Notes: generated by a model not told the origin, from the letters alone. A stretch of DNA of 64,000 bases from Escherichia phage FFH2 (KJ190158), one strand, 5' to 3'. Positions 2,719 to 59,710 are shown, counted from the first letter of the stretch. Numbers and translations: made by a program.

Positions 2719-3654
2719 ATGACAAATGAGGAACGTATGATGAAGTATTTTAATGCAGATGACCTAGTAGACAAAGGTCTTGTAACCAGTCGGTATTATC
2801 CAGATCTTGGATTAAAGATCTATAAATATGCCAGAAAAGTATTCTACAACAATCTGTGGCATTTGTCTCCGCGTTTACTGGAGTGCCGAGGTATTGTTGT
2901 TGGCAATGAGGGGAATGTTGTGGCATGGCCTTTCACAAAAGTATTCAACTTAGGAGAAAACTCCACCAATCTACCGGACAGTAAACTTGTTACTGCGGTA
3001 GAGAAAAAGAACGGATTCCTCGGTGTGGTATCATCTCATAAAGGTGAACTATTGTTCTCAACAACCGGGTCTCTTGATTCCCCATATTGTAACCTCGCAA
3101 AAGAAACCATCAGGGAGCAATGTGGTAATTTAGATCTTATCAAGAAGGTTATGGGCAATGAAAACATGACATTCATGTTTGAAATTTGCCACCCTTCAGA
3201 TCCGCATATTGTTCAGGAAGATCATGGCGCATATTTGATAGGTTGCAGATATAATGATTCTGGAATAATGCTACCAGAAGCAGCTTTAGATGGGATTGCC
3301 AAATACCTTGGTGCAAAACGTCCTCACACTGTGCGTGAAATTCCGTTCAGCTATGCAAAAGAATTAGCTGCAGAAACAAGAGGTGAAGGGTATATGATTC
3401 GTAAGCCTTACTACCCTTATGATCTGCAGCTGAAGATCAAGTCTCCATACTATCTGGCACGGAAGGCAGTAATGAGGGGTAAAGCTTGGAAGATTTGGGA
3501 TGATGATATCTTTAAACGTGTTGACGAAGAGTTTTACGGTATGGTAAAATTTATTCGTAGCAACTATACAGAAGATGTGTGGAATTGCTTATTAGAGCAG
3601 GAGCGTCGTGAGATACTGGACTACTATTTCCACAACGAGGACTATATGCAATGA
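2719..3654 (+). CDS. rnlA: RNA ligase, T4 Rnl1 (gene 63) family
   Basis: LLECRGIVV, KVFNLGENS and nucleotidyl-lysine motif VEKKNGFLGVVSS match T4 Rnl1 (ECRGIMF, KFFNLNENP, ILTKEDGSLVS) as recalled. Confidence 0.8.
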   Translation: MTNEERMMKYFNADDLVDKGLVTSRYYPDLGLKIYKYARKVFYNNLWHLSPRLLECRGIVVGNEGNVVAWPFTKVFNLGENSTNLPDSKLVTAVEKKNGFLGVVSSHKGELLFSTTGSLDSPYCNLAKETIREQCGNLDLIKKVMGNENMTFMFEICHPSDPHIVQEDHGAYLIGCRYNDSGIMLPEAALDGIAKYLGAKRPHTVREIPFSYAKELAAETRGEGYMIRKPYYPYDLQLKIKSPYYLARKAVMRGKAWKIWDDDIFKRVDEEFYGMVKFIRSNYTEDVWNCLLEQERREILDYYFHNEDYMQ

Positions 3655-4001
3655 AGAAGTGGATTGTGTGGCTTGATGATTTTAGAGATCCGTCAGATTA
3701 TGGACTCCCAGACGCTCTGTGGCTAAAGAATTCTTCTGAGTTTATGGATTTTCTTAATGATAAGAGAAAGCTCTACAGACGCGTATCTGAGTGGTATTTT
3801 GACAATGATCTAGGTGAAGTGCTTGAAGGGTACGACTGCTTCTCTGCGCTAGAGGAGAAACTTGTATTCGGAAAGCCACCACTTATTGACAACGTGATTA
3901 TTTTCGTGCATACTTCTAATCCATCGGCAGCTCGTAAATTTATGCTTGCTGCTGACTCATTCAAGAAGTTTGGAATAGAGATTAAACAAAACATCTACTG
4001 A
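3651..4001 (+). CDS. hypothetical protein (116 aa), translationally coupled between rnlA and the sirtuin
   Basis: ATGA overlap with rnlA stop; 8 nt before sirtuin start; no recognised motif. Confidence 0.45.
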   Translation: MKKWIVWLDDFRDPSDYGLPDALWLKNSSEFMDFLNDKRKLYRRVSEWYFDNDLGEVLEGYDCFSALEEKLVFGKPPLIDNVIIFVHTSNPSAARKFMLAADSFKKFGIEIKQNIY

Positions 4002-4009
4002 GGACACTT

Positions 4010-4771
4010 ATGCGACGACTGATTATTATCTCCGGTGCTGGTTTGAGCGCTGAATCTGGTATTCCCACTTTCCGATCTGGTAGCACTGCAATGTGGGAGA
4101 ATTTCAGCATCGATGAGGTGTGCAACATCCACACCTTTGCCAAGAACTACTATAAGGTGCATGACTTTTACAATGCACGTCGTGTAGCTCTGGGCAGTGT
4201 TGATCCTAACCTTGCACATCTTCGGATCGCTGAGTGGTATTCCCGCTGGTCTGGTCGTGTGATCAACCTTACCACCAATGTAGATGATTTGCTGGAGCGT
4301 GCTGGTGTAAAACATGAAGATATTTTACATGTCCACGGGTATTTGCCTGAAATCACCTACGAAGATGCTGAAGGTAATGATGTAATTAAAAATATCGGAT
4401 ACACGGAGGTAGATACAGGCAAGTATACCTGGGTTAAGCCCAATGTAGTGTTCTTCGGTGAGGTTGCTCCTAAGTATACAGACATGTATGACCTGTTGAC
4501 ATCTCTCACAAGCAATGATATGGTGATCCTAGTAGGTTGTTCTAACACAGTTATTAATTTTAACTGGGAATTGTTTCCTGCTACTTGTAAAGGCACAAAA
4601 CTGCTGATTGTAAACAAGTATGACTCGCAGAGTGCAGATGGAAGTGGCATTTCACGTAGCGACCTTTATCAATATGAGGATCGCGGGATCCCTGTATGGT
4701 TTAACGGTGCTGTTGACGCTTTCTCTGATAAAGCATTTATTGAAACTGTAGAAAACTTTATGGAACTTTAA
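4010..4771 (+). CDS. Sir2/CobB-family NAD-dependent deacylase (sirtuin)
   Basis: GAGLSAESGIPTFR, FYNARR, PNLAHL, TTNVDDLLERAG, catalytic HVHG, VVFFGE; near-collinear with E. coli CobB as recalled. Confidence 0.8.
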   Translation: MRRLIIISGAGLSAESGIPTFRSGSTAMWENFSIDEVCNIHTFAKNYYKVHDFYNARRVALGSVDPNLAHLRIAEWYSRWSGRVINLTTNVDDLLERAGVKHEDILHVHGYLPEITYEDAEGNDVIKNIGYTEVDTGKYTWVKPNVVFFGEVAPKYTDMYDLLTSLTSNDMVILVGCSNTVINFNWELFPATCKGTKLLIVNKYDSQSADGSGISRSDLYQYEDRGIPVWFNGAVDAFSDKAFIETVENFMEL

Positions 4772-4784
4772 AAGGAGACCTTTA

Positions 4785-5498
4785 ATGCTGAATACTAAAC
4801 TGATCGACAACCTGGAAAAACTGTCTCAGCCTGAAAACTACCTTTGGTCTGCCAACTGGGTGGAAAACTGGAACCGTGTGGCAGCTAAAGTGAAAAAATC
4901 ATACACACCATTCGAATTACAGCTTAGCTTCATTGAGGAAGAGTTCAATGAGGTTTTGGAAGAGCTGGAGAAAGGTGATGGTGGAGATCACCTGCTAAAA
5001 GAGGCCTGCGATCTTCACGTTGTCACAAGTTATGCCGCTTATCTTGTTAATGATAATCACGAAAAGTGGTCAAACCTGTTTGATAATCCACGAGGTCTTA
5101 AGTTCAAGATCGGTGAGTTCTATGATACACTGATCGCTGCGAAAAACACATCCAAGCAAAGAGCGTCAGCTTACCGCTTAGCGGAGTTGTCAACAGCTTT
5201 GCTGTTCCAGCTTCGCGGCGATGTGTGTGGGATGATGCGGAAGGTTCTCAAATCGAATGACAGCAAGTTTGCACGGGTCAACCATCTACGGTATTCACAC
5301 GGTGCCAGTGCAGATATGCCTGCTGAACAACTCATCGAGTTGGAGATTAAAGATCTTGAGCGACGCTTTGATGGTCGATATGAAGGTTTTGTTGCTAAGG
5401 AAGAATTCTACAACGGTAATAAAGTTATCATATTCCTTGACAGTAAAGGTAAGATCATGAAGCCTTCAAGCTTCAAGGATGTAACAGAGTATATTTAA
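4785..5498 (+). CDS. hypothetical protein, possible MazG-like all-alpha NTP pyrophosphohydrolase
   Basis: Acidic EEEFNEVLEELEKGDGGDHLLKEACDL segment resembles the MazG/HisE E-x-x-E ... D motif; weak. Confidence 0.3.
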   Translation: MLNTKLIDNLEKLSQPENYLWSANWVENWNRVAAKVKKSYTPFELQLSFIEEEFNEVLEELEKGDGGDHLLKEACDLHVVTSYAAYLVNDNHEKWSNLFDNPRGLKFKIGEFYDTLIAAKNTSKQRASAYRLAELSTALLFQLRGDVCGMMRKVLKSNDSKFARVNHLRYSHGASADMPAEQLIELEIKDLERRFDGRYEGFVAKEEFYNGNKVIIFLDSKGKIMKPSSFKDVTEYI

Positions 5499-51213: not shown

Positions 51214-51553
51214 ACTCGTTTTCTTCCAGTTCTGCAAGCTCTTCTTTCACTTCTTCAAGCTCTGTCTGTAATTCTTGGTATTCTTCATCGTCCTCAATAT
51301 CCAGGCTGTCGATGTAGTCGCTAAATCCGCAGCGGTAAGCGATAGGATCTAGCTCCTTGAGGATACGCGACGGAAGAAAAGAAATGTTTCCGATCATAAT
51401 TTCGCCGTAGATCTCGTCTAACCATTCATCATAGTTTTCGTCGTACTTGTCCTCGTCGATTTCAAAGTTATCGATCTTATTCTCAAGGTCTGCGATCTGT
51501 TTTTTCAGCGCGGCGATCTGCATGGCTTTTTCTGCGGCGGTCATAGTAGTCAT
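51212..51553 (-). CDS. hypothetical acidic coiled-coil protein (113 aa)
   Basis: Promoter TTGACA-18-TACTAA and 5' hairpin upstream. Confidence 0.4.
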   Translation of the reverse strand: MTTMTAAEKAMQIAALKKQIADLENKIDNFEIDEDKYDENYDEWLDEIYGEIMIGNISFLPSRILKELDPIAYRCGFSDYIDSLDIEDDEEYQELQTELEEVKEELAELEENE

Positions 51554-51631
51554 GGTGTTTTCTCCTTTTGTGTGTTCTGGGAAGTTTTCCCGTTTATGTG
51601 TTTAGTATACTGATCTAAGTTAGCTTGTCAA

Positions 51632-51751
51632 TTAAAAGTTTAAGAAAAATTTTGCGATACCGTTGGCGCTACCCATCAACATTTGCGCCAGGATGTAACC
51701 AATGATGCAAACGATAATAGTTACCTTTGTGTGCTGGCGTGTAGTACTCAT
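51632..51751 (-). CDS. small hydrophobic peptide (39 aa)
   Basis: Below cutoff; AAGGAGG SD; downstream of promoter-hairpin repeat copy 3. Confidence 0.3.
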   Translation of the reverse strand: MSTTRQHTKVTIIVCIIGYILAQMLMGSANGIAKFFLNF

Positions 51752-51783
51752 CTTCAAGCCTCCTTTTAGCTTAACTGGGATTA

Positions 51784-51830
51784 GTTTACTTTATTGATGG
51801 CCCTGGCGTCAAGACCATCTAAAAATAAAC
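51784..51830 (-). repeat. conserved 45-bp promoter-associated hairpin element, copy 3
   Basis: Near-identical to copies 1 and 2. Confidence 0.5.
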
Positions 51831-52226
51831 TTAGTAAGTTTTCAGTACTTTCCCGTCCAATCTGTCAAGCTGGATCTCGATAGCTGCAGAAAACCTATTA
51901 TAAACCACATCGCCCATGGAGTCCAGCCAATCTATGACGTTATACACCTGCTCTTTATTCTTGCAAGTCCGGATCCGTTTCATTACGTAAGACGGATCAA
52001 TATTAGTGCTCTCGTTGTTGTGGTCATGCGCCTGGCCTGCTGCATTAGTTATAGATTTTACAACCACCTGAAAGGGCTTTAAGGTGCCTTTTGCGTTCAT
52101 CTCACGCGCTTTTGCGGCGCGGTTGTTATATGTTACACAACGGCGGCAAATGTTGACCAAATGCATATCAATAATTTTTTCATCGTTTGCCAGTTCGTTC
52201 ATGATGCGGCGTACGTTCTTATTCAT
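51831..52226 (-). CDS. hypothetical protein (131 aa)
   Basis: Promoter TTGACA-16-TAAACT and 5' hairpin GGCGGGAAtgttTCCCGCC upstream. Confidence 0.4.
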   Translation of the reverse strand: MNKNVRRIMNELANDEKIIDMHLVNICRRCVTYNNRAAKAREMNAKGTLKPFQVVVKSITNAAGQAHDHNNESTNIDPSYVMKRIRTCKNKEQVYNVIDWLDSMGDVVYNRFSAAIEIQLDRLDGKVLKTY

Positions 52227-52312
52227 GATCTTTTTCCTTTGTGTTGGCGGGAAACATTCCCGCCTTTTGTGCCCAGTTTACTTTAATTTTGCAGCGTGTC
52301 AATAATTTTTTT

Positions 52313-52711
52313 TTATTCGTGGGCGCATGTCACAATGTGCTTTTTATACCCCAGGTGGGCAGCAAGTGCTGACAAAAACTCATCTTCATAGATCCAGCCG
52401 TTGGCAGTGATCCCCATAGCATTTAACGCGCTTTCAAGTGCTGCATTGGCCTTATCATAACCGTGACCGCTCGCCTTGCCACCAGTATAACCGTACTTGT
52501 TGTTCTTGCTGTCGTGCATCCAAAAGACGCAATAATGAGTGTTACCGCTGGAGGCGGCATAGTACCGGATCTCCGCTACTTCGTGCAAATTATTATCATC
52601 GTCCAGGCCAACCAGATTATAAGCCTTGTAAAATCCACGATCACGGCGGCAGTTCTTGACATCAGAAAAAGAGAAGTCGGCATTGTCAAAATTAAAGGTT
52701 GTGGTTTTCAT
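52313..52711 (-). CDS. hypothetical protein (132 aa)
   Basis: Co-oriented ORF. Confidence 0.4.
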   Translation of the reverse strand: MKTTTFNFDNADFSFSDVKNCRRDRGFYKAYNLVGLDDDNNLHEVAEIRYYAASSGNTHYCVFWMHDSKNNKYGYTGGKASGHGYDKANAALESALNAMGITANGWIYEDEFLSALAAHLGYKKHIVTCAHE

Positions 52712-52775
52712 GATTTTATCCTCTTAGTGTCTTTTGTGATTTCAGTATATTTTGTGTCGGGGCGTATGTCAATAC

Positions 52776-52973
52776 TTATTTTTTATTAAACCAGTGATTG
52801 ATCTGACCTTTTGTCAGGGCGCAACGATTAAGTTGGTGCCGGGTATAGCTCTGACCGCGACGGAATTTATAAAGGCCTTGCCCGTTGTTGATGGTTACGT
52901 CCACCTGGCAAACCATTTGATCGGTGACCACCTGGCGAGCGTTGCGACGTACTTTGATTCCGTAGGCGTTCAT
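52776..52973 (-). CDS. small basic protein (65 aa)
   Basis: Co-oriented ORF. Confidence 0.35.
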   Translation of the reverse strand: MNAYGIKVRRNARQVVTDQMVCQVDVTINNGQGLYKFRRGQSYTRHQLNRCALTKGQINHWFNKK

Positions 52974-53058
52974 GATTTTTTATCCTCTCTGTTAATTAGT
53001 GTGGTGTTGTTCACCTTGCGAGGATAAGAATAACAAGAACTGTCCGAGCTGTCAACTA

Positions 53059-53235
53059 TTAGTTAAAATTATTTTTTGGGCGGAATTCTCCAGCCGCCGC
53101 CCCTGCCAGGTTAACCATCATTTTTTCGTACTCTTCTTTATATTCCAACGCTCCCGCTATAGCCTTTTCAACCAGGGCGATAGCCTCAGCGTCATTAATA
53201 GCTACATTTTCCAGGGGGATCATATTACCTTTCAT
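53059..53235 (-). CDS. small protein (58 aa), below ORF-track cutoff
   Basis: GAGGAGG SD; Ala-rich. Confidence 0.3.
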   Translation of the reverse strand: MKGNMIPLENVAINDAEAIALVEKAIAGALEYKEEYEKMMVNLAGAAAGEFRPKNNFN

Positions 53236-53394
53236 TTTTGTACCTCCTCTTCAATTGTTACCTATCCTATAGCATAGGCCCACCAGGTTTACAAGCCTTC
53301 ATTCTCTCCTACCTGGTCAGTTAGGTCCTGCCAGGCTGGCCCCACTAGGTTGCAGCGGTTAGTGCATCAGGTTAGAAAAATTTTTTGAAAAGTG

Positions 53395-53520
53395 TTGACA
53401 GCGGCCCCGCCAGGTGGCACAATATACCTATCGAAAGGACGGCAGGCACCGGTGACGGGGGAGACAACCACCGGGGATGGGCGCTGCATAAAATGAGAAC
53501 GGTTATCATTATCATTTAAA
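53395..53520 (+). ncRNA. candidate small RNA unit 1 (promoter, GC hairpin with GGGAGACAACCACCGG, then GAGAACGGTTATCATT tail)
   Basis: TTGACA at 53395; shares hairpin and tail motifs with unit 2. Confidence 0.3.
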
Positions 53521-53538
53521 AATTTATGCAAAAAATCC

Positions 53539-53660
53539 TTGCTTTCTTTGTCCTGTGTGATACTATAATAACAAGCCGGGGCAACAGGGGCCGGGAGACA
53601 ATCACCGGGCCTGCCCGTTATTCTGCAAACGAGAATGATTATCATTCAAAATTCTAAATG
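53539..53660 (+). ncRNA. candidate small RNA unit 2 (TTGCTT ... TATAAT, GGGAGACAATCACCGG hairpin, GAGAATGATTATCATT tail)
   Basis: Tandem to unit 1 in a non-coding island. Confidence 0.3.
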
Positions 53661-53762
53661 AGAACTCCTCGCATTTAATAAATTTAATTAGCACGCTAAT
53701 TACACTCCGTAACAATTTACTATAAAATAGTATCCACTAAAATATTCCCATATAGAAATTTT

Positions 53763-53950
53763 AAAAATCCATTTCTGAAAACGAAAAATCGATTTCGTCC
53801 CTAAAAATTTCAGGCCTAGATCCGGAACGATTTCCAGAAAATCCGATTCAGAAAACGAAAAACAGATCGAGTACTGAGAAATTTATCGAGAAAAATTTTC
53901 AGAAAATCCAAGCCCTGAAATGAAAAGTAGATCGAGTACCTGGAAAGCTG
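53763..53950. repeat. three degenerate tandem direct repeats (about 65 bp each; core AGAAAATCC ... CTGAAAACGAAAA ... GATCGAGTAC)
   Basis: Read directly; inverted partial copies at 54112-54215. Confidence 0.55.
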
Positions 53951-54251
53951 CACCGCAACTTCAAGATAGTGGTTAGATTGTTACCATAGAAGGTCAAGGG
54001 TAAGTGGAGGAAGTTCTAGTAGAGGGAGGTTAGCATGTGTGGGAAATCTATAATGGTGGCCTGGAATATAGTGCAAACGATAGGATGAGTTATTCAGCTT
54101 GTCGCGCCTACTCTGAAAAATCCATTTTAGTTTTCGATCCATTTTCTGATTTTCTAAGAATTTTAAAATATCCGGCCCGGTGAAATATCAAAAGGAGGAA
54201 ATCCATTTTAGAAATCCCCCTTATACTTGATATGCCAGGAATTTTCAAGTA

Positions 54252-54581
54252 TCAGCTGTCTTTGTTTTTAGGTTTGTACATGCGCAGAGGTATGGTCTTT
54301 GTAACATTCCATTTCCTCAACCCTTCCCAGCTCCAGTTGTGGGCGTGATACCCGGTTATGCATGCACTGCTGGCGTGATCATAAGCATAAGAGAACGCTA
54401 TGTGCACCAGGTGGGGCCAGTCCTTCCACGGCTGTGGACCGTAAGCCTTTCTCCAACACCGACACAAACTAATTGTCTCAAGAATAGGGAGAATAACAAT
54501 TCCATATACCACCACCAGAATGGTCAGTGCAATGATTGTCAGGAACACATACCCTGCAGTTGAAATGATGATCTCTGTCAT
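54252..54581 (-). CDS. membrane protein (109 aa)
   Basis: Two hydrophobic helices. Confidence 0.4.
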   Translation of the reverse strand: MTEIIISTAGYVFLTIIALTILVVVYGIVILPILETISLCRCWRKAYGPQPWKDWPHLVHIAFSYAYDHASSACITGYHAHNWSWEGLRKWNVTKTIPLRMYKPKNKDS

Positions 54582-54781
54582 TTGTCGTCCCCTTTCTTAC
54601 GAATATAGATGTGAGAGCCTGCCTGTATATAAATTTCTCGACCATCCTCTGCAAAGATATGAAATACACGATCACCTTCGTACTCGATACGAGATATCTT
54701 CATAATGGTCTTTCCACCTGGGATACGGATCTCGTCCCCCACAGCGATGTTCCATGCAGATTTAAGCTTAAACATCTGCAC
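54578..54781 (-). CDS. hypothetical protein (67 aa)
   Basis: Overlapping start/stop. Confidence 0.35.
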   Translation of the reverse strand: MQMFKLKSAWNIAVGDEIRIPGGKTIMKISRIEYEGDRVFHIFAEDGREIYIQAGSHIYIRKKGDDK

Positions 54782-55013
54782 CCTCCTTTGGGAACTTGAA
54801 CTCTGGCATAGCCATATACGCTACAACAGGGTTGTGATCAAAGTAGAACTGACCGTTAATTATCCCGGTTTTGTCCACATAGTTACCAGATCCTGCAAGA
54901 ACAACCTCGCAAGCTCCGAAATCCACATTGCCATTCTCATCTGCCATGGCTACAATATACTTTCCTAGAGGCATGTTTTTAACGCCGTCTACAAATGTCC
55001 ACCCTTTGTTCAT
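54768..55013 (-). CDS. hypothetical protein (81 aa)
   Basis: Co-oriented ORF. Confidence 0.35.
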   Translation of the reverse strand: MNKGWTFVDGVKNMPLGKYIVAMADENGNVDFGACEVVLAGSGNYVDKTGIINGQFYFDHNPVVAYMAMPEFKFPKEGADV

Positions 55014-55034
55014 AACTTTATCTCCTGGACTTTC

Positions 55035-55367
55035 TTAAGGTAACCAGTAAACAATTTCGCCTTTCAGTTCCATGTCGTTACCGACATAGATTTTCCAGCC
55101 ATCCATTTTAGCCACTGCAGGAGTGAAGTCCGAAGAACCACTAACCTCTTTCCAAGTCCCGTAGTCAGGTTGCCAGATATAGAATCCACCTTCCTTGTCC
55201 CATGCTCCATATACCACATCGAGCAGGTTGCCCATTGCAACAATAGTAGGCCGTGGGAACAATGCATCTACAGATGCGCCACAATATCTAGTATCTTTTA
55301 AATTGCACTCCCAAAAGATGTCTGCCAGTGTGGCGGCGATAGCTTTACGTCTTTCTAATGTTACCAT
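55035..55367 (-). CDS. hypothetical protein (110 aa)
   Basis: Co-oriented ORF. Confidence 0.4.
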   Translation of the reverse strand: MVTLERRKAIAATLADIFWECNLKDTRYCGASVDALFPRPTIVAMGNLLDVVYGAWDKEGGFYIWQPDYGTWKEVSGSSDFTPAVAKMDGWKIYVGNDMELKGEIVYWLP

Positions 55368-55374
55368 ATCATAC

Positions 55375-55566
55375 TCACTTGTTGTTGATAAGTTCTAAAA
55401 CTTTCTGTCTTACTTTGTCAAGGTCTGTGGATTCAAAAACTGTACGATATCCCCAACTTTGCCCATAGGAGTGACTGCAATCCCCGTAGCACCATTGCTC
55501 AATTTGATAGTATTCAAGGAACGGGTGCTGTCTAACTATGATACCATCCCGGTTAAAAATTACCAT
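55375..55566 (-). CDS. hypothetical protein (63 aa)
   Basis: Co-oriented ORF. Confidence 0.35.
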   Translation of the reverse strand: MVIFNRDGIIVRQHPFLEYYQIEQWCYGDCSHSYGQSWGYRTVFESTDLDKVRQKVLELINNK

Positions 55567-55629
55567 AATACATCACTCTCTGTTAGTTTATGCATATATT
55601 ATACACTGCAGTTTTCAGATGTCAATCTT

Positions 55630-55881
55630 TTACAGGTTACTCCAGTATAATCGGCATTTACATTTTGGGCAATAAGGTTCTTTTATGTAATAACCATCAG
55701 TCTTTGGAACACTTTTTGGTGCAGTTTTAAGATTGTACCTGGTAAAACATCGGAAGCAGGTTACCTCTCCCACCTGTTGATCGTTGATCCACTCACCAGA
55801 GTAAAGCTCTTTCTTGTTTCTCATAATTCTCTCCCAAATCCTCTGCAATCTTATACCAAAATCTCCAGCCAGAAAGCACAC
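55630..55881 (-). CDS. small Cys-containing protein (possible zinc ribbon; start uncertain)
   Basis: CFRCF ... CPKCKC. Confidence 0.35.
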   Translation of the reverse strand: MCFLAGDFGIRLQRIWERIMRNKKELYSGEWINDQQVGEVTCFRCFTRYNLKTAPKSVPKTDGYYIKEPYCPKCKCRLYWSNL

Positions 55882-56074
55882 GGGAACACTTTGAGGATTG
55901 AATCTTTACTTGGCTCGGAAGTTCTTTTTCCGTATGGTAGGTAGAAATACCCTCCTGCAGACTCTAACACAGCCCCTTCGGTTGTATCTATCACAGCCAG
56001 AATTAAGATTTTAGTCTCCATAGTGCTCCCTCTCTCAATCGTTGTGGTGACTATACCATCTCAAAAACCAGCTG

Positions 56075-56614
56075 TCAACACTTTTTGTACTCCACCACGA
56101 TAATATCCATATCAAAAGTGGCAAGGTTAATAACGTCCTCTACGTGCTCCCACTTCAAACCGCCTATGCCGCACCCGATCTTAGGGATGTAGAATGGTAA
56201 AGTCGATCCACTGAATACCTCATTGACTAGCTCAAAGCCTTTCAGGATTGAGAAATATTCAGCATTAGGTCCTGGGTAGAACTGAGTATACAGATTGATT
56301 CCGTAGACAATACCTCTCGGAGATAAGTGCTCCCATCGGGAGAACGCACCCAGTTTACTTAGGCAACCATGTCTGGTCTCTTTGTCAGCTGCCAATGCTT
56401 GAGGGAACTCACGGGCAATCTGTTTTGCTATCCCCTTGCCCATTGTGTGGAAGCAGTTACAACCGTGGATCAGGTGACCAGCACCACTCTTAAAAAGGGA
56501 GATTAAATCTCCCTCTACAGTATCAATAATCACGGTATGCCAGCTCCTCTTCCACAATTTCAAAAAACTCATCCCAACCTTGTGGCATATTTGAGTTACC
56601 GAAGTGGCTTTCAT
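56075..56614 (-). CDS. macro-domain protein, Poa1p-like (ADP-ribose derivative phosphatase/hydrolase family)
   Basis: HGCNCFHTMGKGIAKQIAREFP and IPKIGCGIGGLKW match the Poa1p-like macro signatures (N-C ... MG.GIA and GCG.GGL.W); start uncertain (possible GTG near 56533). Confidence 0.65.
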   Translation of the reverse strand: MKATSVTQICHKVGMSFLKLWKRSWHTVIIDTVEGDLISLFKSGAGHLIHGCNCFHTMGKGIAKQIAREFPQALAADKETRHGCLSKLGAFSRWEHLSPRGIVYGINLYTQFYPGPNAEYFSILKGFELVNEVFSGSTLPFYIPKIGCGIGGLKWEHVEDVINLATFDMDIIVVEYKKC

Positions 56615-56948
56615 AGTAAAGGTTCTTACCGCTAGGAAGGTAGAAATCTGTTACCTCATAAAATCCACAATCGTCGCACTCACCTTCTTCAAACTTGGCC
56701 TTAACCTTAATACCGAGGAAGGTGAAAAGTTTATGGACATCTTCAGTTTCGAACTCCCAGGGAATGTTGTTTTCCGCATCGGTGTAGAACTGGATCAGCA
56801 GACCATTGTCCAGTTTACCAAAATACTCTGTGAAGTAACTTCCTTCCCAGAAATCTTTATGACAAATAATATCCATGCGTTTGCCCATAATAATGGTGTG
56901 AGCGTTTTGGGCATCGTCACGAATCAGTTTTGGCATTTCATAGATCAT
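56523..56948 (-). CDS. hypothetical acidic protein (141 aa)
   Basis: Co-oriented ORF. Confidence 0.4.
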   Translation of the reverse strand: MIYEMPKLIRDDAQNAHTIIMGKRMDIICHKDFWEGSYFTEYFGKLDNGLLIQFYTDAENNIPWEFETEDVHKLFTFLGIKVKAKFEEGECDDCGFYEVTDFYLPSGKNLYYESHFGNSNMPQGWDEFFEIVEEELAYRDY

Positions 56949-57016
56949 CTTAGTTCTCCGGGTTCAACAGGTGGTGGCGCTACAGGAAGATCATAAAACA
57001 TAGCTATCACAGTCTC

Positions 57017-57214
57017 TTACACAGGAATTGCTTCAAACAGGCCGTTATCTATACCGTCCTTCAGATAGAGATTATATTCTATGTCGGTATCTGTGTAAAG
57101 GGCAGCATCCAGCATTCTATCTGTGAGTCCATCCATTGGGTGGAGAAACCACCACCCACGCCAGTCAAAGTAACAGCCTGGTGCATCTTCTCTTACACGG
57201 ATTCGATAAATCAT
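57017..57214 (-). CDS. hypothetical protein (65 aa)
   Basis: Co-oriented ORF. Confidence 0.35.
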   Translation of the reverse strand: MIYRIRVREDAPGCYFDWRGWWFLHPMDGLTDRMLDAALYTDTDIEYNLYLKDGIDNGLFEAIPV

Positions 57215-57310
57215 GGGCAGTGGCCTCCTGTTAGTTATACATCCCAGTTTTCTTCGTTCATCACGTCCTCCCGTTCTATGAAGTTATAATTGCACACCTT
57301 TCAACCTGTG

Positions 57311-57727
57311 TCAACAGAAAACTTCAACAAATTCTTCCACAGTTTTAATGTCGTGGGAAAAAGGTTTACGGCTATAACGGGCAATAGCACTATCAACCAC
57401 CGCCCGGTACTCTAAATCTTCAGAGTATTTCATGAAGCATTGTAGCGTCTCTGGACAGATAGCTAAATAGCTCCACCACCCCTCTTCAGATTGGTAGTCG
57501 AATCCCATACTCTCCAACCATGAAGCGTACACACCTGCACCCTCTAGCCAGTGGGTATTTTCATCAAGAAATTTATTCACCGACATGTGTGCTTCCAGGC
57601 ACTCGTCAAGCTCTTTTCCGTTAACCAGCCATGCACTGACTGTGGCGCATCCGAGGTCTACAGATTGAGTTGACAGGTTGTATTGGTCATAGTTCTCAGG
57701 TTTAACAATGATATCTTCTAATGTCAT
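57311..57727 (-). CDS. hypothetical acidic protein (138 aa)
   Basis: Co-oriented ORF. Confidence 0.4.
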   Translation of the reverse strand: MTLEDIIVKPENYDQYNLSTQSVDLGCATVSAWLVNGKELDECLEAHMSVNKFLDENTHWLEGAGVYASWLESMGFDYQSEEGWWSYLAICPETLQCFMKYSEDLEYRAVVDSAIARYSRKPFSHDIKTVEEFVEVFC

Positions 57728-57789
57728 TTTTCAGATCTCCTTATACAAAAATGCCCCACCCTTTCGGGCAGGGCTATGTTAACTAGATG

Positions 57790-59016
57790 TTAAAACGGTA
57801 TGTCATCATCAAAGGCGTACTGTGCTGGATTCTGATCCATCGGGTCATCTTCCTCATCATTTACAGGAGGAGCGTCTACAGTGTTTTGCTGTGGAGCTGC
57901 TTCCTGTTTGGCAGCCTGAGGTTCTTGATGGTCAGTTGACCCAGCACCGTTCTTGATCCAATCGTACAACGGCTCAGCCAGATTAGTCAAGACATCTTTT
58001 GCTTCTGCAGTAATTGCCACTGCAAAATCATCAACTTTCGTTTTCTTGTCAATACGGCGACAAGCGTTCAACACCGCATTACCGACACTGGCACCTACTT
58101 CATCTTCAGTTCGGTTGGTGGCTTGAGCATACTCTTTCTTAAGCTCAATGGTGACTACGTGCAGTGTTTTAGCCACTCCCAGTGGGTCGTCTACCTTAAA
58201 CCCGCGATCCAGGATGATCTGCAACGCATTGATGCTATGCCCCGTTTCCACACCGATAGGGTCGTAAGAGGATTTACGCTTGCCACCAGATCCTTGAGTG
58301 CCGTTCTCTGCCTTAGGGGGATAGGCCTTGAAACCACTGATAATGTTTCCGGTGTCTTTGTCAACAATGGCTGCAACACGACCACCTACCACCAGGTCTT
58401 TAAGCTGCTCATCAGTTACAACCATAGCACCTTCGCCAATCTTGTGGTCATTAACAGTAACCACGTTGCCAACAATCTGAGTCACATCACCATAGATGCG
58501 TAAAACGTCCTGATTGGCATTCTGCTGAGGTTTCTGCTTCTGGCCTTGTGATTGTGCACCTTGTTGCTGTTTTTGCTGCTGAGTCGCTGCTGGAGCCTCT
58601 CCTGCACCCAGCTTAACCATCTTAGCCAGTGAGCCCTTGTAATAGGTCTTACCGTTATGCTCGTTTGCCTTCAAAGGGATATTTACGATCCATCCTGGCG
58701 TTACGGTTTCCCACTTGTCATCAATCTTAACAGAGACAGAGTCTTGATGACCTGGTTTAAGCAGCTTATCACCCATGCTGATCCAGACTTCTTCACCACC
58801 TTGAAGCAGGTTATCAGAGGAATCCAGTTCAGAAATCAGTAAAGAGATGGTGTGGCTGGATTCAATTTTCTTACCTTGCCACACAGTGGTTTTAATACCT
58901 GTTGTAGGATCAGCACCTTTAATAGGCTTGATGCTAACACGTTTAATCATGCCGTGAGCTAGTAAAACAGTTTCACGCGGATTCATTGGGTTAGCGAATT
59001 GTTGAATAACGCTCAT
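57790..59016 (-). CDS. putative ssDNA-binding protein with bacterial SSB-like C-terminal tip (DDDIPF)
   Basis: C-terminus ...AFDDDIPF matches the E. coli SSB acidic tip; Gln/Gly-rich linker; sits in the replication cluster near the DNA polymerase. Confidence 0.55.
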   Translation of the reverse strand: MSVIQQFANPMNPRETVLLAHGMIKRVSIKPIKGADPTTGIKTTVWQGKKIESSHTISLLISELDSSDNLLQGGEEVWISMGDKLLKPGHQDSVSVKIDDKWETVTPGWIVNIPLKANEHNGKTYYKGSLAKMVKLGAGEAPAATQQQKQQQGAQSQGQKQKPQQNANQDVLRIYGDVTQIVGNVVTVNDHKIGEGAMVVTDEQLKDLVVGGRVAAIVDKDTGNIISGFKAYPPKAENGTQGSGGKRKSSYDPIGVETGHSINALQIILDRGFKVDDPLGVAKTLHVVTIELKKEYAQATNRTEDEVGASVGNAVLNACRRIDKKTKVDDFAVAITAEAKDVLTNLAEPLYDWIKNGAGSTDHQEPQAAKQEAAPQQNTVDAPPVNDEEDDPMDQNPAQYAFDDDIPF

Positions 59017-59381
59017 TATTTGTCTCCTTGTTCTTCGTTAGTGCTTGCCGTGTGTGCGAACCCTGCTTGAATTAATTTGTCCTGAACTTGAGCCAACAGG
59101 CCCATTGCAAAACTTGTGGTCCCAGAGAGGGCCATCAGCATATCCCGTTGTTGAGCTACCCAACCTAAGGCATAGTCCAAACGACGATATTTTTCTTCTT
59201 CACGCAGAGCCTGAAATAATTGTTCAGCCTCCGGTTGTTGTGTGAGCTCCTGAAGTCTTCCCATGAAAGAAGAAAGCACTAGCAAAAGAGACACTTGATC
59301 TTTACTTAACCCTAAGAAAAATTCTTGAGGTTGTTCTTGCTCGTTCATCGCAACCGACTCTTGATCGTTCATTTGTTCCAT
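59016..59381 (-). CDS. hypothetical protein (121 aa)
   Basis: Start/stop overlap with neighbours. Confidence 0.4.
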   Translation of the reverse strand: MEQMNDQESVAMNEQEQPQEFFLGLSKDQVSLLLVLSSFMGRLQELTQQPEAEQLFQALREEEKYRRLDYALGWVAQQRDMLMALSGTTSFAMGLLAQVQDKLIQAGFAHTASTNEEQGDK

Positions 59382-59464
59382 TATGGAATCTCCGATTTTA
59401 TTTGAACAACATAGAAGGAGACACTATTTTAGCATCCCCTTCTGTAAATTACAATAGGTATTTG

Positions 59465-59710
59465 TTAGCCAATCACTTCGAAAGTTCCCCAATTCCCGTC
59501 CAGCAGGCAGGTGATCGGATCCCCATCGTCGTCAAAGATTTCAAAGTTTTCAGCATCCAGGATGTGGCCCTCGAACACAATACTTTCGTCGCCACCACCA
59601 GAGATAACAGCGTATTCCTTACCTTGAGTCAAGTTTTGACACCCTTTGCCACCAAAACCTACTTCAACACAACGTACTTTCTGTCCTGCGCGAGCAACTA
59701 CTTCAGTCAT
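59465..59710 (-). CDS. hypothetical protein (81 aa)
   Basis: Co-oriented ORF. Confidence 0.35.
   Translation of the reverse strand: MTEVVARAGQKVRCVEVGFGGKGCQNLTQGKEYAVISGGGDESIVFEGHILDAENFEIFDDDGDPITCLLDGNWGTFEVIG

Follow-up and report, generated by a model that had tools for sequence, protein, structure and literature searches.

The window (the whole 64,000-nt stretch of Escherichia phage FFH2 DNA, KJ190158, that was analyzed) encodes a stand-alone macrodomain protein of the ALC1-like class (TARG1/DarG/SCO6735/Poa1p) and of the phage Tk.4 family PHROG 335, an assignment that follows from the Pfam, PHROG, AlphaFold2/Foldseek and profile scores taken together. By analogy with T4 Tk.4, the protein is proposed, with moderate confidence, to act as an early anti-DarT2 DNA de-ADP-ribosylase of the AdfM type. 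The gene is already annotated publicly and belongs to a large, recognized phage family with two experimentally characterized members; no paper on the Vequintavirus macro protein itself was found in the literature searched. Added here are a corrected start, assignment to the tk.4 lineage, recognition of that lineage as Gln-type, and caution regarding the functional split.

Gene boundaries and transcription signals

The initial annotation had placed a macrodomain protein at 56075-56614 on the basis of two motif strings. The features of the window that bear on this gene and its expression are as follows:

56075..56533, minus strand: macrodomain coding sequence, 152 aa, GTG start, T4 Tk.4/AdfM homolog
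56534..56614, minus strand: 5′ extension (27 codons) of a 179-aa ORF, in another frame encoding the C-terminal end of the upstream product
56544..56549, minus strand: GAGGAG, Shine-Dalgarno-like, 10 nt 5′ of the macrodomain GTG, by direct reading of the sequence
56523..56948, minus strand: upstream gene, 141 aa, PHROG 8157 (unknown function), no Pfam family
57071..57099, minus strand: sigma-70-like promoter (TTTACA, 17 nt, TATAAT; 11/12), consensus match only
57286..57314, minus strand: sigma-70-like promoter (TTGACA, 17 nt, AATTAT, with TG), consensus match only
57753..57774, minus strand: strong intrinsic-terminator-like hairpin that ends the preceding transcription unit
56050..56078, minus strand: sigma-70-like promoter serving the genes that come next downstream, with its -35 TTGACA at 56078..56073

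An ORF of 179 aa with an ATG start is indeed present at 56075..56614 on the minus strand, and both motif strings, HGCNCFHTMGKGIAKQIA and IPKIGCGIGGLKW, are real and found in its translation, but its start had been set too far upstream by 81 nt. The real gene is probably 56075..56533, with the GTG start at 56533..56531 and the TGA stop at 56077..56075, and the 27-codon extension is probably not translated. The shorter form was adopted because the annotated product in HdK5 and APECc02, both close relatives, is the equivalent 152-aa protein, essentially all homologs in the databases are 150-153 aa long, in-frame stop codons lie directly 5′ of the equivalent MII/MIV start in the GEC-3S and T4 homologs, and the extension itself has changed, with 6 of its 27 residues differing between the window and HdK5/APECc02 and an internal Met lost. 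No counterpart of the extension is present in GEC-3S or T4, and the 5′ end of the 179-aa ORF overlaps the upstream gene by 92 nt. Together with the Shine-Dalgarno-like GAGGAG, the annotation of relatives, homolog length and upstream stops led to rejection of the 179-aa ATG form in favor of the 152-aa GTG form.

At the DNA level, the window shares 95-96% identity with rV5-like Vequintavirus genomes of E. coli. The macro gene is conserved in every one of the 118 records that match, including 113 that cover most of the 3-kb query, and in several it is labeled "macro domain protein," "O-acetyl-ADP-ribose deacetylase" or "phosphatase." It belongs to a block of approximately fifty small genes, all on the same strand, that lies downstream of the DNA polymerase region. 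As a functional clue, the neighboring genes were uninformative, since all ten fall into PHROGs without known function; no Pfam match was obtained for the three neighbors tested.

The stop of the 141-aa gene overlaps the GTG start of the macro gene by 11 nt, suggesting that the two genes are probably co-transcribed and translationally coupled. The candidate promoter at 57314..57286 is intergenic and stands ahead of a three-gene run (57214..56075) that ends in the macro gene, while the one at 57071..57099 lies inside a 65-aa ORF, 5′ of both the 141-aa gene and the macro gene. Downstream, the -35 element of the next candidate promoter includes the TGA stop codon of the macro gene. Upstream, a terminator is annotated in HdK5 at the equivalent of 57753..57774. 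Across the 8-kb region around the macro gene, 31 sigma-70-type matches were counted, mostly on the minus strand, versus 15.2 ± 4.3 expected. Such a promoter-rich region, read from consensus matches only, would fit early transcription by the host RNA polymerase.

Fold, family and active site

The macrodomain call made earlier proved right: the protein passes the gathering cutoff of Pfam Macro PF01661 (27.7 bits vs. 22, E 2.7e-6), as does T4 Tk.4 with a likewise 27.7 bits, and it matches PHROG 335, labeled "phosphatase," with an E value of 4.7e-59. Homologs were detected by tblastn in 2781 phage records, with T-even and other myoviruses accounting for the bulk of them. Taken together, these matches are well above what chance would give. 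An AlphaFold2 model built from 66 homologs (pLDDT 96.1, pTM 0.91) predicts a macro fold, with TM scores of 0.72-0.79 to TARG1, DarG and Poa1p. Foldseek comparison of this model to the PDB gave 175 matches at E ≤ 0.001, and the best 50 of these 175 are macrodomain structures or designed hydrolases, except for one rice PHR2-SPX2 complex. The top match is TARG1 (E 4e-10, TM 0.78/0.85), the other solved relatives being DarG (TM 0.76-0.78), SCO6735 (0.74) and Poa1p (0.72), with BT1257 also among the best matches. A family profile searched against the PDB ranked M. tuberculosis DarG highest (67.9 bits), followed by BT1257 (63.6), SCO6735 (63.0), TARG1 (61.5), T. aquaticus DarG (60.3) and Poa1p (55.9). 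Thus, the term "Poa1p-like" used in the initial annotation is acceptable as a broad label, given that the H-x-C-N-C motif is common to Poa1p and that the relative Adpp is a phosphatase, but there are nearer solved relatives than Poa1p, whose profile score falls below those of DarG, BT1257, SCO6735 and TARG1.

In both NCBIfam and PADLOC, the sole match was the DarG model. The NCBIfam match (NF048014) reached 46.7 bits against an equivalog cutoff of 250 and covered model positions 3-141 of 338. Filing the protein as DarG was rejected, as the score is below the cutoff and the catalytic Lys, the C-terminal domain and a darT gene are all missing.

Pairwise comparison to T4 Tk.4 extends over the full length (153 aa; 39% identity, 63% positives, E 2e-40, 120 bits). 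The GEC-3S (Krischvirus) protein has 68% identity to the window protein, and its gene lies between vs and tk, which is the T4 tk.4 position; T-even matches of the macro family likewise adjoin vs. In a neighbor-joining tree, only two clades were resolved, one of DarG-like phage proteins with M. tuberculosis DarG (98% bootstrap) and one uniting the window and GEC-3S proteins (96%). The node that places T4 Tk.4 with the window protein and leaves Adpp outside has 29% bootstrap, and deeper nodes in general (10-40%) are too poorly supported for phylogeny to decide between a Tk.4-type and an Adpp-type assignment.

The Asn/Gly-rich pocket residues, whose absence from the alignment would have spoken against a macrodomain, are present and invariant in the family. 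In all 66 homologs, down to approximately 32% identity, eight positions never vary (G24, N26, G34, A36, N80, Q84, P117 and G120), and H23, C27, M31, Y82, T83, I119, G122 and G125 are nearly invariant; G32, G122 and G125 are each conserved in at least 89% of these homologs. In DarG (K80 in T. aquaticus and M. tuberculosis) and TARG1 (K84), a catalytic Lys aligns with Gln84, and Gly124 aligns with TARG1 Asp125. A Gln at the DarG-Lys position also occurs in SCO6735 and BT1257 (ANMIGQHG), and H23, N26 and Q84 align to SCO6735 H24, N27 and Q85. By alignment, the entire Tk.4 family is therefore Gln-type at the predicted catalytic position, rather than carrying the DarG Lys, so its chemistry should follow that of SCO6735. 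The equivalent of SCO6735 K34, Lys33, is present in the window protein and in only 8 of the 66 homologs, and the basic mobile-loop lysines of SCO6735 (K89/K94) are absent, the corresponding loop of the window protein being short (QFYPGPN) and without Lys; in SCO6735, K34 and the loop lysines serve DNA binding.

Candidate functions

The earlier suggestion that the phage protein counteracts ADP-ribosylation, with DarTG named among the possible opponents, agrees with the genetics of its T4 homolog. In a T4 transposon library grown on DarTG2, tk.4 was the single significant hit (Humolli et al., 10.1101/2025.11.20.689424, preprint). A clean tk.4 knockout rendered T4 DarTG2-sensitive, and the gene was named adfM, for anti-DarT factor Macrodomain; enzymatic removal of ADP-ribose from DNA was inferred by the authors from evidence in T4 that is genetic only (10.1101/2025.11.20.689424). 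On the biochemical side, the Gln-type SCO6735 is able to cleave ADPr linked to T in ssDNA, and it rescues the toxicity of DarT (PMC9411070). Its Q85A mutant loses activity fully and N27S almost fully, and it was proposed that the Gln positions the distal ribose while a backbone-held water starts catalysis (PMC9411070).

On this basis, the window protein would be made early, from transcripts of the host RNA polymerase, as its position in a small minus-strand gene block rich in sigma-70-type matches would suggest, and would be translated from the GTG at 56533 in coupling with the upstream gene, judging from the overlap of the two genes. Homology and the AlphaFold2 model predict that ADP-ribose is held by Asn26, by the M31-G-x-G34-x-A36 loop and by the P117-x-I-G-C-G-I-G-G125 diphosphate loop. 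The bond between ADP-ribose C1'' and thymine, made by host DarT2 on single-stranded phage DNA, would then be hydrolyzed, freeing ADP-ribose and allowing replication to proceed in DarTG2-carrying hosts, as T4 Tk.4/AdfM genetics together with SCO6735 biochemistry would lead one to expect. Catalysis would follow the SCO6735 pattern suggested by the alignment, with Gln84, fixed by Asn26, positioning the distal ribose and with no catalytic Lys involved. Against DNA de-ADP-ribosylation stand the level of identity to T4 Tk.4, which is only 39%, and the absence of both the DarG catalytic Lys and the SCO6735 DNA loop, together with the poor conservation of Lys33 among the homologs. Net charge and pI were considered as indicators of DNA binding and found uninformative, a PhiKZ-like member of a proven DNA de-ADP-ribosylase family having a pI of 5.05. 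In a HIDEN-SEQ study of V5-like Bas54, the macro gene was not reported, and a DarTG2 challenge of the Bas54 library was likewise not described.

Family membership does not reveal the substrate, because the same PHROG-level family includes a proven ADPR-1''-P phosphatase, Adpp. The window protein may thus instead be a phosphatase of the Poa1p/Adpp type that converts ADPR-1''-P to ADPR, an alternative that is unlikely but carries real weight, and for which the substrate could be supplied by a host RES-type NADase (aRES) or by a sirtuin-centered, KptA-like RNA-repair pathway of the phage itself. In vitro, Adpp of Vibrio phage Gary turns ADPR-1P into ADPR, and overcoming aRES depends on it (10.64898/2026.01.28.702374). 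The macro protein of Vibrio phage Ceto, encoded in an operon of the same make-up (Adps-macro-Namat), has 35% identity to the window protein as well as the H-x-C-N-C and N-x-Y-x-Q motifs; H23, N26 and T30 of the window protein correspond to Poa1p H23, N26 and S30, two of which are the targets of the deposited mutants 6LFS and 6LFT. However, no homolog of Adps or Namat was found in the window or in the complete APECc02 genome (tblastn best E > 4; none annotated), so production of ADPR would not rebuild NAD+, and a role of the Adpp kind, feeding NARP1, is weakened by the absence of these two genes. The protein also scores higher with T4 Tk.4 (120 bits) than with Ceto Adpp (74 bits), shares its short loop with Tk.4 and lacks the 7-residue insertion that Adpp has after the Gln. 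The context, with no NARP1 genes for an Adpp-type partner, therefore favors the Tk.4-like function.

The phosphatase alternative also touches on a sirtuin, which the initial annotation had tied to the macrodomain through O-acetyl-ADP-ribose. The sirtuin gene is real, and its surroundings in the window are as follows:

4010..4771, plus strand: Sir2-family protein, Pfam 98.2 bits
2719..3654: T4-type RNA ligase, flanking Sir2
3651..4001: cREC domain protein, flanking Sir2

The gene that follows Sir2 is a nucleotide pyrophosphohydrolase by the APECc02 annotation. This neighborhood is exactly the one described for "Escherichia phage V5," in which the RNA ligase, cREC and Sir2 genes are not coupled to a Macro gene and the sirtuin is predicted to be KptA-like and to act in RNA repair (Iyer et al., PMC9503650). 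The Sir2 family occurs chiefly in T5-like and V5-like phages (1021 phage records), with no T-even phage among the 25 of these records listed, and its distribution across phages is largely different from that of the macro family. The proposed coupling, in which O-acetyl-ADP-ribose from the sirtuin becomes the macrodomain substrate, is unsupported and was rejected, because the two genes lie 52 kb apart on opposite strands, Sir2 sits in an RNA-repair cluster that the literature describes as not Macro-coupled, the distributions differ, and T4 has Tk.4 without a sirtuin. The same observations count against a sirtuin-derived substrate for a phosphatase. In its favor, the RNA ligase, cREC and Sir2 cluster was proposed to release ADPr>P that needs processing (Iyer et al., PMC9503650), and in Ceto a set of RNA ligase, ATPase and phosphoesterase genes directly adjoins the NARP1-macro operon. 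A looser link to the sirtuin, via ADPr>P or ADPR-1''-P by-products, is accordingly kept as part of the phosphatase alternative and shares its low probability.

Hydrolysis of some other ADP-ribose conjugate appears improbable. Candidate substrates would include marks placed on protein or RNA by a host defense ADP-ribosyltransferase (e.g., CmdT-like), O-acetyl-ADP-ribose, or cyclic ADPR-type signals. The class is promiscuous, with SCO6735 and TARG1 also stripping ADPr from proteins (PMC9411070), and phage Macro domains have been argued to target mainly soluble ADPr derivatives (Iyer et al.). Several database records call homologs "O-acetyl-ADP-ribose deacetylase," but such names are automatic transfers, and for none of these substrates is there an experimental precedent in the Tk.4 phage family. 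In addition, the TARG1 Lys84/Asp125 dyad, which serves protein-Glu de-ADP-ribosylation, is replaced by Gln84/Gly124. T4 is restricted by CmdTAC despite having Tk.4, which further counts against this alternative.

One enzyme could also perform more than one of the proposed activities. A bifunctional Gln-type Tk.4 site might both erase DarT2-made thymidine-ADP-ribose and dephosphorylate ADPR-1''-P or ADPr>P-derived products, which could originate from host RES-type NADases or from the Sir2/cREC/RNA-ligase tRNA-repair module of the phage. Such dual activity is a speculative proposal with a small chance of being correct; if true, it would link DNA-level and metabolite-level NAD+ counter-defense in a phage without NARP1.

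Least credible is a non-catalytic binder that, with no hydrolysis, neutralizes DarT or another NAD-using effector by contact or sequesters an ADPR-derived signal. In its favor, the protein has no canonical catalytic Lys, the inactive SCO6735 mutant Q85A can still inhibit DarT in vitro through interaction (PMC9411070) and ICP1 AdfB is reported to bind DarT directly, but the invariance of Asn26, Gln84 and both Gly-rich loops down to approximately 32% identity is typical of a maintained active site, and catalysis in SCO6735 needs the same Gln and Asn (PMC9411070).

Since the family includes Adpp, the labels "phosphatase," "AdfM" and "O-acetyl-ADP-ribose deacetylase" should not be carried across it without assays. 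The tie to the tk.4 lineage predicts that rV5-like therapeutic and typing phages would be naturally protected from DarTG2. By itself the finding matters little, as the gene is conserved and already labeled as a macro domain protein and the phenotype of its T4 homolog is published.

Comparison with known systems

Among the solved relatives, Poa1p (6LFQ) shares the LIH-x-CNC motif with identical numbering (H23, N26) and has Ser30 where the window protein has Thr30, with a TM score of 0.72. In contrast to the window protein, it has Ser at position 84, a 25-residue insertion and Phe152 in place of Gly124, and its profile score (55.9 bits) is the lowest among the class relatives. TARG1/OARD1 (4J5R/4J5S), the top structural match, is of similar size, has a similar loop 2 (PRIGCGL) and also cleaves T-ADPr. 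Unlike the window protein, it has the Lys84/Asp125 dyad in place of Gln84/Gly124, and a Ser occupies the position of the family Asn26.

The DarG macrodomain (T. aquaticus 5M31/5M3E, M. tuberculosis 5M3I) is the best-scoring solved relative by profile, and loop 2 of the DarG group closely resembles that of the window protein (PPLGVGNGGLDWE vs. PKIGCGIGGLKWE). The conserved Asn is shared with DarG and chimallivirus AdfM, and by analogy the substrate would be expected to be the same, T-ADPr on ssDNA. PhiKZ gp104, the chimallivirus AdfM and a different protein from T4 Tk.4/AdfM, is DarG-like, retains N23/K78 and removes T-ADPr in vitro (Morgan et al., PMC13309987). Unlike DarG and PhiKZ gp104, the window protein has a Gln in place of the catalytic Lys80/K78, and unlike DarG it consists of the macro domain only (152 aa), with neither a C-terminal DarT-binding domain nor a darT gene beside it.

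Adpp of Vibrio phage Gary is a macro protein whose gene lies between those of Adps and Namat; it lets NARP1 overcome aRES, and its closest characterized homolog according to the authors is Poa1p (Osterman et al., 10.64898/2026.01.28.702374). In the present comparisons it was represented by its Ceto homolog, which is 35% identical to the window protein over 141 aa (73.6 bits) and lies just as far from T4 Tk.4. The fold class and the H-x-C-N-C, N-x-Y-x-Q and IGCG-x-x-GG motifs are common to Adpp and the window protein. Whereas Adpp belongs to an Adps-Namat operon, has the 7-residue insertion after the Gln and has a pI of 8.3, the V5-like lineage has neither Adps nor Namat, and the window protein is without the insertion and has a pI of 6.3.

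SCO6735 (5E3B) and BT1257 (2FG1) resemble the window protein as members of the ALC1-like class in which Gln replaces the catalytic Lys. SCO6735 H24, N27, Q85 and G128 have conserved equivalents in H23, N26, Q84 and the Gly-rich 120-125 loop. Identity is only approximately 27%, and SCO6735 differs in its pI of 9.5, in the greater length of its basic mobile loop (K89/K94), in being the product of a cellular, DNA-damage-inducible gene, and in its Val25, which corresponds to the invariant Gly24 of the Tk.4 family.

T4 Tk.4 differs in setting, as it is encoded in the vs-tk interval while the window gene lies in a block of small unknown genes after the DNA polymerase region. The two proteins have several features in common: both are stand-alone macro proteins of approximately 152-155 aa from PHROG 335 with the same start, MI[IV]..., and both have HGCNCFHTMG, NLYTQFxPGPN and P-x-IG-x-GIG, the Gln at the DarG-Lys position and a short loop.

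Promoter matches and the gene upstream of the macrodomain gene

Within window 51500..59500, 31 sigma-70-like promoter matches were found versus 15.2 +/- 4.3 expected, a 2x excess that concerns consensus matches only, and these lie for the most part on the minus strand. Two such matches, together with the gene upstream of the stand-alone macrodomain gene (56075..56533, minus strand), are as follows:

55625..55598, perfect (12/12) sigma-70-like consensus match
56050..56078, minus strand, sigma-70-like consensus match with its -35 TTGACA at 56078..56073
56523..56948, minus strand, gene for a 141-aa product assigned to PHROG 8157 (unknown function)

The TGA stop codon of the macrodomain gene falls inside the -35 element at 56078..56073. 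Because the 141-aa gene overlaps the start of the macrodomain gene by 11 nt, the two genes are likely to be translationally coupled.

Relatives of the macrodomain segment and its protein

The 3-kb window segment 55000..58000 was compared to the records of relatives. In JES2013, ECML-10, inoa, nom, DrSchubert, EmilHeitz, and rV5_ev168, its equivalent occurs in two pieces over about 3.6 kb, separated by extra DNA that carries an endonuclease VII or homing endonuclease annotation; the insertion is absent from the window. Sixteen further records titled "Campylobacter phage" with C. jejuni as the stated host, including MG065635.1 (C12) and MG065653.1 (C14), are 96-100% identical to the E. coli Vequintavirus of the window (regions compared, 4010..4771 and 55000..58000), and the C14 Sir2 protein is 100% identical to that encoded at 4010..4771, suggesting that these deposits carry a mislabelled host or represent contaminating coliphages.

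The protein encoded between vs and tk (the tk.4 locus) in Krischvirus GEC-3S (L011:2501-2956) shares 68-69% identity with the Vequintavirus macrodomain protein but only about 45% with T4 Tk.4, suggesting lateral exchange of the gene between the Krischvirus and Vequintavirus lineages. The top viral structural match in BFVD is A0A481YV05 (TMq 0.93, 39% identity). This Marseillevirus protein of 302 aa, which bears the annotation "SNF2 subfamily protein," is reminiscent of the SNF2-macro architecture of ALC1/CHD1L. The ALC1/CHD1L macrodomain, like the phage protein, is reportedly Gln-type, with Gln at the DarG/TARG1 catalytic Lys position.

RNA-repair genes and their distance from the macrodomain gene

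Four plus-strand genes at window 2719..5498 constitute the sirtuin-centred RNA-repair neighbourhood described in phage V5 by Iyer et al. 2022 (PMC9503650):

2719..3654, plus strand, T4-type RNA ligase (Pfam, 55.5 bits)
3651..4001, plus strand, cREC cyclic-phosphate-processing domain protein (Pfam, 52.3 bits)
4010..4771, plus strand, Sir2 (Pfam, 98.2 bits)
within 2719..5498, plus strand, 237-aa gene, nucleotide pyrophosphohydrolase as annotated in the close relative APECc02

In the relative's genome, an ATPase and a phosphoesterase are located near this neighbourhood on the opposite strand. In Vibrio phage Ceto (L005:1-6149), the Adps-macro-Namat (NARP1-AP) operon is immediately preceded by a set of RNA ligase, ATPase and phosphoesterase genes; thus, RNA-repair genes and a macro-containing NAD+ operon are neighbours in Ceto, whereas in the V5-like genome the RNA-repair and macrodomain genes are not.
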